Of a stretch of 64,000 nt of DNA, positions 53,461 through 58,138 are shown piece by piece. The position numbers and the translations under genes were made by a program. The notes below the pieces were generated by a model. That model saw only the letters and a list, made by a program, of their open reading frames with translations, did not search any database and was not told the origin of the DNA. The first letter of the stretch is position 1, and the number at the start of each line of letters is the position of its first letter. Source of the DNA: a virus (taxonomy: Duplodnaviria > Heunggongvirae > Uroviricota > Caudoviricetes); IMG/VR virus record IMGVR_UViG_3300042484_003148, positions 67,284-131,283 of that record. One strand, 5' to 3'.

Positions 53461-53536
53461 CTAACAGAATATTTGCTAAAGTGGGTTTTTATCCTTACCT
53501 TTGTTTTCAATCTAAAATTCTACTAAAACCAAAATT

Positions 53537-53866
53537 ATGAACCTTATTCAATCTTTAATAACCCACCTTCGCAAATATTATATGTTGTGTGTTAGTTTAA
53601 TAAGACCGCAACAACACGACACAGACTTGCAAGAGAATGAAAAAAATGGTAAGTTTGAGAAAAATAATAAGACTATGACAGATGTTGAAGTAAATAATAA
53701 AAGGTATCTTTCATCAAGTAAGATATCTGAAACCGAAATTAACTCTATTAAAAATAGAGCGCAAGAATCATACCAAGCACACCATAACAAGGTAAATCAA
53801 TTTACCAAAATGACACCTGACGAAAGATTAAAAATGGTTTTAAATAATCGCAATGTTTCAAAATGA
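53537..53866 (+). CDS. hypothetical protein
   Basis: 109 aa; promoter at 53472-53503. Confidence 0.5.
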   Translation: MNLIQSLITHLRKYYMLCVSLIRPQQHDTDLQENEKNGKFEKNNKTMTDVEVNNKRYLSSSKISETEINSIKNRAQESYQAHHNKVNQFTKMTPDERLKMVLNNRNVSK

Positions 53867-54260
53867 ATATATTATAGAATACAATATTAATAACTACGGT
53901 ATTGGTGTAATCACTTATGATATCAGTTACATTAATCCATTATGGAAAATAATAATTTTTAAATTTAACTATTTAACGTACTATAATAATTCTATGTTAT
54001 TAGAGAGTTACTTTACTTTAGAAGATGTAAACAAAAATGACAATTTTAGTATGTACAGCAAAAACGATAAAATTATATTATGGAAAATTATTTTTAGTAT
54101 TAAAAACTATTATTTTAACAAACACAAACCAGATATTGTTGAACACTTTATTGATGGTAATTTTTCAAAAAGATTAAAATTATATAAATGTTATTTAAAT
54201 CCGACACATTATTATTACCAAGACGAACAACATTTAAATATATTTTATTTAAAACTTTAA
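53853..54260 (+). CDS. hypothetical protein immediately upstream of the attC-like site
   Basis: 135 aa; stop is 10 nt before the ACACAAC box. Confidence 0.5.
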   Translation: MFQNEYIIEYNINNYGIGVITYDISYINPLWKIIIFKFNYLTYYNNSMLLESYFTLEDVNKNDNFSMYSKNDKIILWKIIFSIKNYYFNKHKPDIVEHFIDGNFSKRLKLYKCYLNPTHYYYQDEQHLNIFYLKL

Positions 54261-54270
54261 CAAAACCAAC

Positions 54271-54400
54271 ACACAACATGGGTTTGGTAAAAGCAGGGCT
54301 GACGTGAATAACCAAGTTTCAACTTCTATCAAACTTAAGTTGTTAAACCCAACAGATGTAATTCTAAACCCTGCCTTCACCAAGCCCTTTGACGTTAGTT
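54271..54400 (+). other. integron attC-like recombination site (solitary)
   Basis: 130-nt imperfect inverted repeat bounded by ACACAAC (RYYYAAC-like) and GTTAGTT (GTTRRRY-like); stems GGGTTTGGT/ACCAAGCCC and GCAGGG/CCCTGC; GC-rich against the background. Confidence 0.65.
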
Positions 54401-54424
54401 ATCATTATACAAACATATAATAAC

Positions 54425-54649
54425 ATGAATTTCTTAGACGATTATAAAAAACTAGAGAATGAGTTATTAGCTTCAGAGCAAGAAAATAACCGAAAAAAGA
54501 ACTATTTATTAAGAGAACTTAAAGCAACACCTATAGAAGAAATTATTGGGATACCTCAAGATTTAGTCAATAATATTGAAAACCCAGATAAACTAGAAAC
54601 TAAAGAACCGACTAAGCTATTTGGTTGGTTAAAGAAAATATTTAGATGA
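54425..54649 (+). CDS. small coiled-coil phage protein
   Basis: ATG 54425; ends LFGWLKKIFR; ATGA-coupled to the exonuclease. Confidence 0.6.
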   Translation: MNFLDDYKKLENELLASEQENNRKKNYLLRELKATPIEEIIGIPQDLVNNIENPDKLETKEPTKLFGWLKKIFR

Positions 54650-55602
54650 ACATTTCAACACAAGACAGAACTATTGATTTAACAAGAATTGGTGGTATAA
54701 AATTTGAAGAACATAATCATAGATACACAAATAAAGAAGGTGTAAGATATAATGGTGTTACTACTTTATTAAAAAATTATGAACATCATTTTGATACAGA
54801 AATTGGTGCTATCAATTCAGCTATAAAATATGTAATTATTGAAGAATTCGGAGAAGAAAAATTCAATACTTTAAAACACCAATGTAAAAATGAACAATTA
54901 AATAAATTAAAAGGTTTAATTAGCAAAGAAGATGAAAAACATGTTTTCGGACATAATTTTTTACATGAAAAATTACATTCAATTACCAATAAATATCCTT
55001 TATTAAAGGATAAAGTTGAAGAAAACAGAGTTAGGTTTTTAAAAGAATGGAAAGAAGCTAGTGATGAAGCAATAAAAATAGGCTCAGGTGAACACGACCT
55101 TAGAGAACAAAATATTAAAAAATATGGTTATTGGTTTGAAGGTGTACATTACAAATATATTGAAGGTAAAAACATATTAAACGTAACAACTGATGACGTA
55201 ATTATTATACCGGAGTGTTTAGTTTGGAATCATAATGTAAAACTTGGTGGTCTTGCTGATATATTTCTTTTTAACAAAGGTTATATATTCGTACACGATT
55301 TTAAAACGAACCAATCAATTGACATGGAATCGTTCTTAGGAAAAAAGATGAAAGGTTGTTGTTCTAGATTAATGGATTCATCGTATTATCACTATTCATT
55401 ACAATTAAGAATATACCAAAAAATGGCTCTTGACTTAAGAAAAGAATTCAAACAAGGTGAAAATTACATAATACACACAACATCAGAAAAATATAACAGA
55501 ACCGAAGATAGTTATATTAAATGTTTTGAGGTTGAGAATGAAGTGGAGAATATTTTTAAAGATTTATATGAACGTGATTTTAGTAAAAATAATACATTTT
55601 AA
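54646..55602 (+). CDS. PD-(D/E)XK exonuclease (Cas4/RecB-like phage exonuclease), intact
   Basis: FEEHNHRY, GVTTLL, GGLADIF, HDFKTN, HYSLQLRIY. Confidence 0.85.
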   Translation: MNISTQDRTIDLTRIGGIKFEEHNHRYTNKEGVRYNGVTTLLKNYEHHFDTEIGAINSAIKYVIIEEFGEEKFNTLKHQCKNEQLNKLKGLISKEDEKHVFGHNFLHEKLHSITNKYPLLKDKVEENRVRFLKEWKEASDEAIKIGSGEHDLREQNIKKYGYWFEGVHYKYIEGKNILNVTTDDVIIIPECLVWNHNVKLGGLADIFLFNKGYIFVHDFKTNQSIDMESFLGKKMKGCCSRLMDSSYYHYSLQLRIYQKMALDLRKEFKQGENYIIHTTSEKYNRTEDSYIKCFEVENEVENIFKDLYERDFSKNNTF

Positions 55603-55644
55603 TTGTAAACTTTAACTATTTATAATAAATAACTAAATCTTTTA

Positions 55645-57372
55645 ATGCTTTCTCTTAATTTACCTATTATACATAACAGTGATACTAATTTTGTCGAAGA
55701 CAAAATGAATCAACACGCTTATGCTTTTAGGTATATGTTTAGAACATTAGATGAATCCGGTAATCGTCAATACGATGATAATATTAAAAATAAATTTAAA
55801 TTAAATGATACTGAATATAGTTCACTTGAAACGGTAGTAAAAACTTTCTTTAAACAGTGTGAAACAAACAATAAAAAGACACAAAAACGTATTAATAATA
55901 AGTTAGATGAAATTGAAGAACTTAAAACCAAACAACAAGACCCTAAAAAGTTTCTAACTAAAAAAGAAAAACGTTCACTTCATAAATTACAAGAACAAGT
56001 TGTTTATTTAAAAGGTGTTCTTAAAAACAAACCTGTTTTTGGTGGTAGAAAGAACCTACAACATTTAACACATTTACATAATCAGTACAATACTTTAGTT
56101 AATAATCTATCTGTTACAACTGATGAAACTGAAATAATATTACTTGAAAATGAATTAGTCGAACAGTTTGATAAAATTGAAAAACAAAAGAACAAATATG
56201 TTACACAGAGATTAAGGTCTTTTTATTTGTTGGGCGAAGCCAATCAAAAAGGTAACAGGTTCTTTGACTTTATAAAACTAAATGAAGGTTTGTTGGTTTA
56301 CAAACCCAAACAAGGTACTAAAGTCAACTTAACTGTTAAGGTTTGCAAGAATGAACTTAAACTTGTTAACAAGTTGATTGAGTTATCTCAAACTAAAAAC
56401 ATTAGTTTGTCTGTTTATTTATCAAACAAAAGTGTTTCAATTGCTTACGATGATGATATTGTTAACGGTTGGACACTTGATGAAACTGAAAAGAAACAAA
56501 AGATTAAAGAAATAAAAGAAACGTATGTTGATAAAGAGTTACAAACAACACTTATAAAAGCTGTTTACAGTGAACACCATAGAAAAGTTGAGCAATTAAA
56601 ACTAGAAGGTAAAATTGAAGGACGTTGCGTAGCAATTGATATGAATCCATCTTATATTGGAGTTGCTATCTTAGAACGTGATTATGAGAATGAAGATACA
56701 GAAACAGGTAAACATGCTGTAAAAGTAATACATAAGTTCTGTTATTCTTTAAAGTATTTTATACAAAAGCTTCCTAAGGAAGCAACAGAAGAGGAAAGAG
56801 AATACTTACGTAACAAACAGAAACATGAGATTAAAGAATTAAATCATCATTTGTTTAATGTAGCTAATCATTATAAATGTTCAAGTTTTGTAATGGAAGA
56901 CTTAAATTTTAATGAGTCAAAAGAAACATTAAAGAAAGGTAAAGAAGCAAACAGACAAACCAAAAATGTATGGTACAGAGGTCTGTTTACACAGATGATA
57001 ATGAAGTTAACTTCAAAATATGGTATCAAACTTATAGAAGTTGAACCAAGTTATTCTTCATTTATTGGAAATATAATGTACAAGAACTTTGACCCTATCA
57101 ATTCAGCTATTGAGATAGGAAGAAGAGGATTGTATAAGTTTATAAAAAATTGTGCAGGTTTACCACAGATTACCGAAGGTATCTTGAACACCGTGGCTGA
57201 AATTCTTTTAAAGAATGGAGAGGATGTTTCAAAGATGAACAAAATGAGTAAAGTGACGTGGAAAAACTTGTTTAACCTCTTGAAAAAATACAGATGGAGA
57301 GGTTCATCGGACTTGGTAACAAGTCGATGCAGGATGAGTACTAAAAAGAGTAGAGTTAAGATATTAAGCTGA
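55645..57372 (+). mobile_element. tnpB: TnpB-like (IS200/IS605/IS607 OrfB) RuvC nuclease without transposase
   Basis: RuvC-I AIDMNP, RuvC-II VMEDL, VEPSYSSFIGN..FD..NSAIEIGRRG; PVFGGRK and GEANQKGNRFF; no Zn finger; no tnpA in the window. Confidence 0.8.
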
Positions 57373-57410
57373 AGAGTTTAATAAAATTCTATTGTTTTTA
57401 TTACTATATC
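57274..57410 (+). ncRNA. candidate omegaRNA scaffold overlapping the tnpB 3' end
   Basis: Stems AACCTCT/AGAGGTT (57274-57304) and CATCG-G-ACTTG-GTAA-CAAGTCGATG (57305-57329); position typical of omegaRNAs. Confidence 0.45.
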
Positions 57411-57906
57411 TATCTGATGACAATCAAATTTTTATAGGTGATAACATGATTAAAGCTGGACATGAATTTATTGAATTAATGCACAGTCGCGGTGCCGTAC
57501 TTTTAGATACGGAAATGGTTTTGGGTTGTCCACATTTAGGTTATACAGGACAACCAGATAAGGTTTGGTTATTTAATAAAAACGGTGAATTGGGTATCAT
57601 TATCAGCGATTACAAAAGTAATAAACCAAAAAACTTTGAATCACATTGGTACACTATTCCTATGTTAAAACCTTTTGAACAATACGATGACACAGCATTA
57701 AGTCATTACTATTTACAATTACCTTTTTATGTAAGATTGTTATTACAAATGTTAAAAGGTCAAAGTATGAAAATATATCTTTCTTCGGTGGTATCGTCCT
57801 TTTACTTAAAGAAGATGCAACATACAAGGAATATAGAATTCCAAAAGATATTATAACCAAAGTATTTAGTTTAGATATTAAAAATATTCTACAAAACAAC
57901 ATTTAA
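57392..57906 (+). pseudogene. 3' half of a second PD-(D/E)XK exonuclease, with a frameshift
   Basis: GAVLLDTEMVLG, GQPDK, SDYKSN, HYYLQLPFY; no N-terminal half; a 1-nt deletion near 57760 hides the tail SKYENISFFGGIVLLLKEDATYKEYRIPK... Confidence 0.75.
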
Positions 57907-57958
57907 GTTTTAAACTATTTATAAAAAACTTAATAAAGAATTTTAACTTTAAATTATA

Positions 57959-58138
57959 ATGAATAATGACAAATTAAAAGCGTTTTTAAACAATGGTTCA
58001 AAAAACGCACCAATTATTTCACCTGATAATAAATTTGATAACGAGGAAATTATCGAATCAAGACAAGGTTTAATTGAAAGAGTTGACAGAACTCTAAAAA
58101 CTAAAGACGGACGTATTCTTTTAATGGAACAAAGATAA
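57959..58138 (+). CDS. small late protein (59 aa)
   Basis: MNNDKLKAFL...GLIERVDRTLKTKDGRILLMEQR*; late motif at 57914. Confidence 0.55.
   Translation: MNNDKLKAFLNNGSKNAPIISPDNKFDNEEIIESRQGLIERVDRTLKTKDGRILLMEQR

Follow-up and report, generated by a model that had tools for sequence, protein, structure and literature searches.

A TnpB gene without a transposase lies between an intact exonuclease gene and the broken 3' half of its alternative allele in an uncultured jumbo phage

We analysed a stretch of 64,000 nucleotides (nt) of a Caudoviricetes genome (IMG/VR record IMGVR_UViG_3300042484_003148, positions 67,284 to 131,283; hereafter the window), with attention to a gene for a TnpB/Cas12-like nuclease. 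The locus belongs to an uncultured jumbo phage and carries this gene, tnpB, without a transposase, between the phage's own exonuclease gene (exo-1) and the broken 3' half of an alternative allele (exo-2). A preliminary description, made from the sequence without database searches, had reported an intact exonuclease gene, tnpB and the frameshifted 3' half of a second exonuclease gene in this order; all three are present, and their coordinates are refined here (Table 1). It had taken the three parts for an RNA-guided cassette that cuts the resident exonuclease allele of related phages and supplies exo-1 as an uncuttable replacement. This interpretation is partly supported. The geometry of the presumed guide and the exo-2 alleles found in the same slot speak for it, and the idea of exo-1 and tnpB travelling as one cassette is contradicted by the sequence comparisons below. 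The reading that we put forward, at about even odds (probability roughly 0.5), is that a TnpB/omegaRNA unit of the IS607 lineage, aimed at exo-2, became stranded here and was joined to exo-1 by recombination.

The mobile part of the locus was delimited by alignment to three independent copies elsewhere and measures 1.8 kb (55615-57415). TnpB proteins 86-89% identical to the window protein (c1) are encoded in three unrelated neighbourhoods of other phage contigs (L018, L019/L020 and L021; L- and P-numbers denote loci or contigs of other phages used for comparison). At these three loci the TnpB unit occurs alone, without an exonuclease, at 87-90% identity. DNA homology to L018, L019 and L021 spans window positions 55615 to 57415/6, and the four copies end in ...ATATCTATCT(G) and diverge right after it. 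This right end reads ...ATCTATCT(G) in the four copies and is not GG. Elements of the IS607 type have both ends present, end in GG and insert at GG (PMC13565253); at 55615-57415 the outer left end is missing. The 50 nt upstream of the motif ACTATTTATAATAAA that L019 and L021 have in common are absent from the window copy, L018 (26 nt available) has the inner part of this left end, and the paralogue c2 in the same record shares the outer left end partly. Homology to c2 begins at 55608 rather than at the 55615 seen with L018, L019 and L021. A direct test for leftover similarity to the outer left end at the left junction of the window was not significant. We also considered that a complete left end starting GAACGTGA encodes the tail of exo-1, and rejected it: the 8-mer match to the L019 flank is not significant and is not found in L021. 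The right end of the window copy is thus intact and its left end truncated, and it lacks a transposase of its own; the preliminary description was right that there is no adjacent tnpA and no recognisable left end, the outer ~50 nt of the latter being gone.

The right end of the unit (57415/57416) abuts the coding sequence of exo-2 exactly, so that in standard TnpB geometry the guide would be derived from exo-2. The flank that would serve as guide begins GATGACAATC..., and its first 20 nt have no second match in the 195-kb record, even with 2 mismatches allowed. The preliminary description had already proposed a guide from the second exonuclease gene; that part is supported, with the right end lying at about codon 124 of exo-2, and its position is corrected, since the flank starts at 57416, ~6 nt to the right of where it had been placed. 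The equivalent site in exo-1 is unrelated to this flank, in agreement with the earlier suggestion that exo-1 would be uncuttable. Just 5' of the site equivalent to the right-end junction, intact relatives of exo-2 read ...TTTG(A/T)TTGT.

The 3' part of tnpB carries signs of a structured RNA. The 237 nt preceding the right end have a minimum free energy of -59.2 kcal/mol (z-score -3.99 vs shuffles), and compensatory changes occur at 8 of 79 pairs among 5 copies of the putative scaffold. In the last ~95 codons of tnpB the synonymous rate is 0.13-0.21, vs 0.37-0.54 elsewhere, about 2.5-fold lower, suggesting that the nucleotide sequence is constrained for another reason as well. Rfam gave no credible match in this region of the window or in L010. 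The region offers a candidate omegaRNA with the layout expected of one.

The predicted structure of the TnpB protein (predicted local distance difference test score, pLDDT, 93.4) has the WED, REC and RuvC parts of the Cas12/TnpB fold; Foldseek ranked Cas12k first (E 5e-8), followed by Cas12f, all at probability 1.0. The RuvC triad (D332/E418/D483) is invariant in 120 homologues. By sequence, the protein matches TIGR01766 ('TnpB-related') over residues 389-472 at 32.8 bits against a cut-off of 32, and shares 30% identity with the TnpB annotated for ISCaje4 in Campylobacter phage CP220. Pfam returned no match above cut-off for the 575-amino-acid (aa) protein, the TNB domain matching partly and below cut-off, and PDB sequence searches with the TnpB and exo-2 profiles returned no match. 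A zinc ribbon (CxxC...CxxC) was not found: the stretch from RuvC-II to RuvC-III reads YSSFIGN, and cysteine pairs are missing from the whole family, which counts ~700 representatives, mostly of 520-580 aa. Against copies at other loci, c1 has a ratio of nonsynonymous to synonymous divergence (dN/dS) of 0.15-0.21; it is intact and under purifying selection.

We assign this TnpB to the IS607 lineage, as an incomplete element, because a serine-recombinase TnpA lies directly upstream of a tnpB homologue and ends at the TnpB start in 4 of 23 IMG/VR loci (L044, L045, L055 and L060), and because the 195-kb record holds two serine recombinases and no Y1 transposase. The paralogue c2 (G000:C1:41053-42768, minus strand) is 70% identical to c1 in amino-acid sequence. 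A complete IS607-type pair, a 198-aa serine recombinase with its TnpB (C1:44700-46400), lies 2 kb from c2, and downstream of c2 there are ~480 nt of non-coding DNA and two paralogous open reading frames of 48-49 aa.

The exo-2 remnant aligns to residues ~124-286 of full-length relatives of 285-286 aa, matches PHROG 298 (E 4e-7), and retains the GQPD, DYK and Y..Q..P.Y motifs; its first residues, D-D-N-Q-I-F-I-G-D-N-M, align to C-D-x-x-Q-I-x-K-G-D-x-M of intact genes. Compared with an in-frame allele of 81% identity, the frameshift consists of one missing T between 57759 and 57760, and the rest of the frame is intact when read through it. The remnant shares 86% amino-acid and 81% nucleotide identity with the in-frame alleles of L038 and L039. 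Over the exo-2 3' half, dN/dS is 0.115 between the window and L038, at a synonymous divergence (dS) of ~1, and 0.109 between L038 and L040. Such low ratios indicate that this was working coding sequence for nearly all of the time separating these phages, and a single lesion at dN/dS 0.11 and dS ~1 argues for a recent disruption. A homologue search with the exo-2 alignment returned mostly a clade of the L007 type (up to 64% identity to the remnant) and no closer full-length allele; a scan of genome contigs with exo-2 gave no matches. One distant homologue (L036:191-2047) carries an intein with a LAGLIDADG endonuclease inside the active-site D-x-K motif and has its first 77 codons in a separate frame.

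The upstream gene, exo-1, encodes a protein with the motifs and the predicted fold of a PD-(D/E)XK exonuclease: it matches PHROG 298 'exonuclease' (E 2.8e-13), and its AlphaFold model (pLDDT 93.8) resembles MGME1, Cas4, the RecB nuclease domain and lambda Exo as top PDB folds. D205, D218-x-K220 and Q253...Y257 are invariant across the relatives of exo-1 and exo-2, and the two proteins are homologous along their entire length at an identity of just 25%. Relatives of exo-1 with 85-88% amino-acid identity occupy the same position in phages without TnpB; against them, dS is ~0.8 and dN/dS ~0.1, a divergence resembling that of the flanking genes. The start of exo-1 overlaps the stop of the small upstream gene as ATGA, the arrangement originally noted (54425-54649 and 54646-55602). 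In L010, L037 and L012, homologues of this small gene, of 51-66 aa, reach into the start of exo-1 or end immediately before it, and the small gene is the conserved partner of exo-1. As exo-1 and the small gene hold the same position in the TnpB-less L010, L037 and P0001 contig, exo-1 is a resident gene of the phage and not cargo of a mobile cassette.

Table 1 Coordinates of the features at the tnpB locus (positions in the window)
Feature	Position	Strand	Description
Small 'KKIFR' gene	54425..54649	+	74 aa from the ATG at 54425; frame open from 54389
exo-1	54646..55602	+	Intact, 318 aa; PD-(D/E)XK exonuclease (predicted) of Cas4/RecB/MGME1 type
Left junction	55603..55614	.	12 nt from exo-1 stop codon to start of TnpB-unit homology
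Late-promoter-like motif ACTATTTATAATAAA and leader	55615..55644	+	Inside the left end of the element, 30 nt before the tnpB ATG
tnpB (c1)	55645..57372	+	575 aa; zinc-ribbon-less TnpB/Cas12-like nuclease, RuvC triad intact
Candidate omegaRNA scaffold	57180..57415	+	Last ~190 nt of tnpB and 43 nt past its stop, to the right end
Guide-equivalent flank	57416..57435	+	First 20 nt past the right end; exo-2 codons D-D-N-Q-I-F-I
exo-2 remnant	57416..57906	+	Last 163 codons of a 285-286-aa exonuclease; stop codon 57904-57906
Native late-promoter-like motif and leader of the 59-aa gene	57907..57958	+	Motif at 57914-57924; right junction with the conserved backbone
59-aa gene	57959..58138	+	Conserved downstream neighbour in all relatives
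Motif sites in the window	5390, 33830(-), 43802(-), 55615, 57914		Part of the G000:C1 set

To place the locus among related phages, we compared gene order across the slot between the small gene and the 59-aa gene, as the preliminary description had suggested. In L010 (75-85% nucleotide identity) the order is 460-aa gene, small gene, exo-1, spacer, 59-aa gene and 292-aa gene, with neither tnpB nor exo-2. The order of small gene, exo-1 and 59-aa gene is kept in L010 and L037, and that of exo-1 and 59-aa gene in the P0001 contig; in L037 and the P0001 contig, exo-1 is followed by a spacer of 61-62 nt and the 59-aa gene, with no tnpB. On the right, the window becomes homologous again to L010 from 57893 and to L037 from 57906. 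In three short contigs of three samples (L038, sample ENA ERZ27246616; L039, which equals L030, JGI 3300007708; and L040, ENA ERZ650232) the 59-aa gene is immediately preceded by an exo-2 3' half that is in frame. Their 59-aa product is identical to that of L037, and downstream they are 94-99% identical to L037; they diverge from it exactly at the stop codon (AAC TAA), with the same promoter region following. From these comparisons, exo-1 and exo-2 appear to be alternative forms of one exonuclease gene in the same slot of closely related phages. Full-length members of the second exonuclease family, foreseen in the preliminary description, do exist as the 285-286-aa relatives in other phages, in addition to the in-frame 3' ends in the slot of the sister phages. 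TnpB-less relatives with both exonucleases intact, a 3' guide from outside the remnant, and a complete lack of full-length exo-2 alleles had been named beforehand as observations that would count against the proposal; none of the three was encountered.

At this conserved slot the states differ among close relatives: empty in L037 and the P0001 contig, filled by a different mini-element in L010 and occupied in this phage, the patchy presence that characterises homing elements. Between TnpB copies at different loci, dS is 0.32-0.47, vs ~0.8 for the host phages, so the insertion is younger than the split of the phages.

We suggest that the present arrangement arose as follows. A TnpB element would have inserted within exo-2 of an exo-2-type phage. 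One unequal crossover with an exo-1-type phage would have followed, at or beside the short late-promoter-like motif common to the left end of the element and the native promoter after exo-1. This would have joined exo-1 to the promoter, tnpB, the right end and the exo-2 3' half, and would have deleted the 5' half of exo-2 and the outer left end together. A single crossover could therefore explain the intact exo-1, the lost outer left end, the lost 5' half of exo-2, and the native exo-2 3' end with its promoter and the 59-aa gene. The motif is where such an event would have it: relatives have ACTATTTATAATAAA 16 nt after the exo-1 stop, in the window the left junction falls inside the 12 nt that separate the exo-1 stop from ACTATTTATAATAAA, and copies of this motif stand behind exo-1 in L037 and behind exo-2 in L038 and L040.

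Several points weigh against this reading. Between the exo-1 stop and the motif the window reads TTGTAAACTTTA, unlike the relatives, so the crossover point can only be inferred. The flanking identities show general mosaicism and no clean parental switch at the locus, the composite is known from one genome only, and the nearest sequenced relatives carry exo-1. The L038-L040 contigs begin downstream of the junction (window equivalents 57434, 57483 and 57557), which makes a full-length exo-2, a composite or a tandem pair all possible upstream; exact-protein look-ups with the 59-aa protein, exo-1 and the small upstream proteins of the sister lineage found no contig reaching upstream of the exo-2 end. 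No empty site, from which a target-adjacent motif could be derived, was found for any complete copy, an exact-protein look-up with a neighbour of L019 included. The omegaRNA is a candidate on sequence grounds, and homing between phages is argued from analogy.

The main alternative to the crossover history, which we regard as unlikely, is that exo-1 and exo-2 once stood side by side as an ancestral tandem pair, that TnpB inserted into exo-2, that a deletion took the 5' half of exo-2 with the outer left end, and that the relatives with exo-1 only lost exo-2 by deletion. A deletion adjoining an insertion sequence is a single-step event, and both genes end in AAC TAA before shared downstream sequence, a possible short repeat for such a deletion. 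The divergence of exo-1 (dS ~0.8) and of the exo-2 3' half (dS ~1) is like that of the flanks and would fit joint vertical descent. However, the two genes were found together in 0 of 7 exo-1 and 0 of 8 exo-2 neighbourhoods, the end of the deletion would have had to hit the promoter-like motif by chance, and the sister phages, 95-99% identical downstream, split cleanly at the stop codon as alternative alleles would.

The cassette as first proposed, in which exo-1 and tnpB were copied together into a resident exo-2 with exo-1 as an imported uncuttable rescue gene, is in our view very improbable. The order of the three parts fits it, the guide cannot match exo-1, and the composite, once formed, could propagate in that way. 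Yet exo-1 and its partner gene stand at the same position in three TnpB-less relatives with backbone-like divergence, and the TnpB unit starts 12 nt after exo-1 and occurs without an exonuclease at three other loci. Recombination, given exo-1 in TnpB-less relatives and the TnpB unit alone elsewhere, would explain the composite better than a pre-formed cassette.

That the TnpB unit and the exo-2 fragment are idle leftovers of rearrangement, with an exo-2 guide that has no live target and a TnpB that persists since such elements are young and numerous in this phage, seems possible to us but doubtful. The remnant is frameshifted and the left end truncated, and the guide cannot match the exo-1 of the nearest sequenced relatives (L010, L037 and the P0001 contig). 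The 195-kb record holds at least 6 TnpB-like genes, pointing to high turnover, and L010 exemplifies the decay of such elements to mini-remnants at the same site. On the other hand, c1 is intact, keeps its catalytic triad and evolves under purifying selection; in-frame exo-2 ends under purifying selection sit in the slot of sister phages, so potential targets circulate; and one lesion in 490 nt of DNA with a guanine-plus-cytosine (GC) content of 25% indicates a recent event.

The late-promoter-like motif deserves attention beyond the junction. The motif ACTATTTATA(ATAAA) occurs 5 times in the window vs 0.46 expected, and 14 times in the 195-kb record, each 22-85 nt (mostly 22-45) before an ATG. 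Five of the 14 sites precede TnpB genes, and these belong to four subfamilies; it would seem that TnpB elements with different origins have convergently adopted late expression of the phage.

The exonuclease locus has been hit by selfish elements repeatedly: by two TnpB families, by a third TnpB upstream, and by the intein in the distant exo-2. The 324-bp spacer of L010 (L010:8940-9290) is an internally deleted mini-element of another TnpB family. Over positions 154-312 the spacer shares 90.6% identity with the final 120 nt and the 38 nt past the stop of a 426-aa zinc-ribbon TnpB encoded in this phage at C1:20615-21895, its positions 11-38 match the left end of the same element, and an imperfect ATAAACAA repeat flanks it at the extreme end of exo-1. 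We had considered this spacer as a decayed exo-2, and rejected that on account of these matches. In the P0001 contig (JGI 3300059473, 2715 bp), whose exo-1 is the one most similar to that of the window (88%), a zinc-ribbon TnpB has its C-terminus 190 nt ahead of exo-1, in the usual place of the small partner gene, and the 59-aa gene directly follows exo-1.

A separate module of 950 bp (53467-54416) stands upstream of the small gene and is absent from L010 and L037. Sequences 87-93% identical to its ends recur at other places in the phage (G000:C1:151248-152243 and C1:51129-51259). The 5' end consists of a Bacteroidota-type promoter and the first ~45 codons of an open reading frame, the middle is variable, and the 3' end is a GC-rich long hairpin of 160 nt (54258-54417). 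By analogy, the module looks like a promoter/stem-loop shuffling cassette of T4-type phages rather than an integron attC site.

The record from which the window was taken is 195 kb long and estimated to be 61% complete, the GC content of the genome is 25%, and a 308-kb contig encodes a TnpB protein identical to the product of 55645-57372. Among GenBank phages, no close DNA or protein relatives of the region, exo-1 or exo-2 were found, and IMG/VR single-protein scans with exo-1, its 294-aa neighbour and c1 gave no matches.

What the unit might do can be set out from known TnpB biology. A TnpB takes its guide from the sequence flanking the right end and cleaves sites that lack the element, and repair then copies the element into them (PMC8612924; bioRxiv 10.1101/2023.03.14.532601). 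TnpB drives its own copying in chromosomes (bioRxiv 10.1101/2023.03.14.532601) and acts as a gene drive in multicopy plasmids (bioRxiv 10.1101/2025.02.20.638934), and a 2026 review names homing among co-infecting phages as a mode to be expected, though a separate one (PMC13565253). In the phage described here, TnpB would be made alongside the late genes, with the first ~16-20 nt of the exo-2 remnant as the guide of the omegaRNA, and its targets for cutting would be the intact exo-2 alleles of sister phages in the same cell. In repair from this genome, the exo-2 3' half and the genes beyond it would form one arm of homology and the genes preceding the exonuclease the other; tnpB would thereby be inserted and exo-1 co-converted, much as in intronless homing. 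With its left end lost and no transposase, the window copy could spread only by guided cutting and repair. RNA-guided homing against sister phages is therefore plausible by analogy. That the locus acts as a natural RNA-guided 'cleave-and-rescue' drive among co-infecting jumbo phages, with TnpB directed against exo-2 and linked to the uncuttable exo-1, is a stronger claim that we hold to be improbable. Were it true, cutting and repair would turn exo-2-type phages into carriers of exo-1 and tnpB, and the polymorphism of exo-1 and exo-2 would be partly the footprint of a drive.

Homing of TnpB between co-infecting viruses is expected yet undocumented, and the locus provides a concrete case that can be tested: the right end is mapped inside a gene with two alleles, the occupied, empty and remnant states are found in near relatives, and the means of transposition are lost. 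The late-promoter-like motif carried by TnpB genes of four subfamilies adds to the interest of these elements.

Compared with the TnpB/omegaRNA systems of IS200/IS605 and IS607 elements (Karvelis et al. 2021; Meers et al.), the window copy has the same RuvC D-E-D triad and predicted Cas12/TnpB fold, a predicted structured region that overlaps the 3' end of the gene and reaches the right end, and a flank that would be the guide; its relatives, like IS607 TnpBs, adjoin an IS607 serine recombinase. It departs from those systems in lacking a zinc ribbon and a transposase, in its enlarged helical N-terminal half (575 aa), its truncated left end, its phage late-promoter-like motif and a right end other than GG, and it would presumably be directed at alleles in co-infecting phages, not at the copy on a sister chromosome or plasmid. 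A second parallel is with the free-standing homing endonucleases of T4-type phages (SegF, SegG and MobE; PMC13565253), likewise nuclease genes between conserved genes, patchy in close relatives. They too stand beside a DNA-metabolism gene with divergent alleles, and repair would carry neighbouring markers, here exo-1; in contrast to them, recognition here would be by guide RNA and not by protein, and the element interrupts its target gene instead of lying beside it.

The left junction also recalls the promoter/stem-loop (PeSL) cassettes that, as Arbiol et al. 2010 reportedly described, shuffle open reading frames in T4-type phages. In both cases short regulatory motifs common to many genes appear as points of recombination, the left junction falling at such a motif, and the neighbouring 950-bp module likewise has repeated promoter and hairpin ends; here, however, the motif resembles a late promoter and belongs to a Bacteroidota-type phage, and a TnpB element makes up the cargo. 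Finally, engineered cleave-and-rescue or home-and-rescue gene drives direct a nuclease against one version of a gene and link it to an uncuttable version. The locus has the same linkage in a natural setting, where it most likely came about by chance recombination; that the exonuclease is essential, and that the linkage drives, are suppositions.

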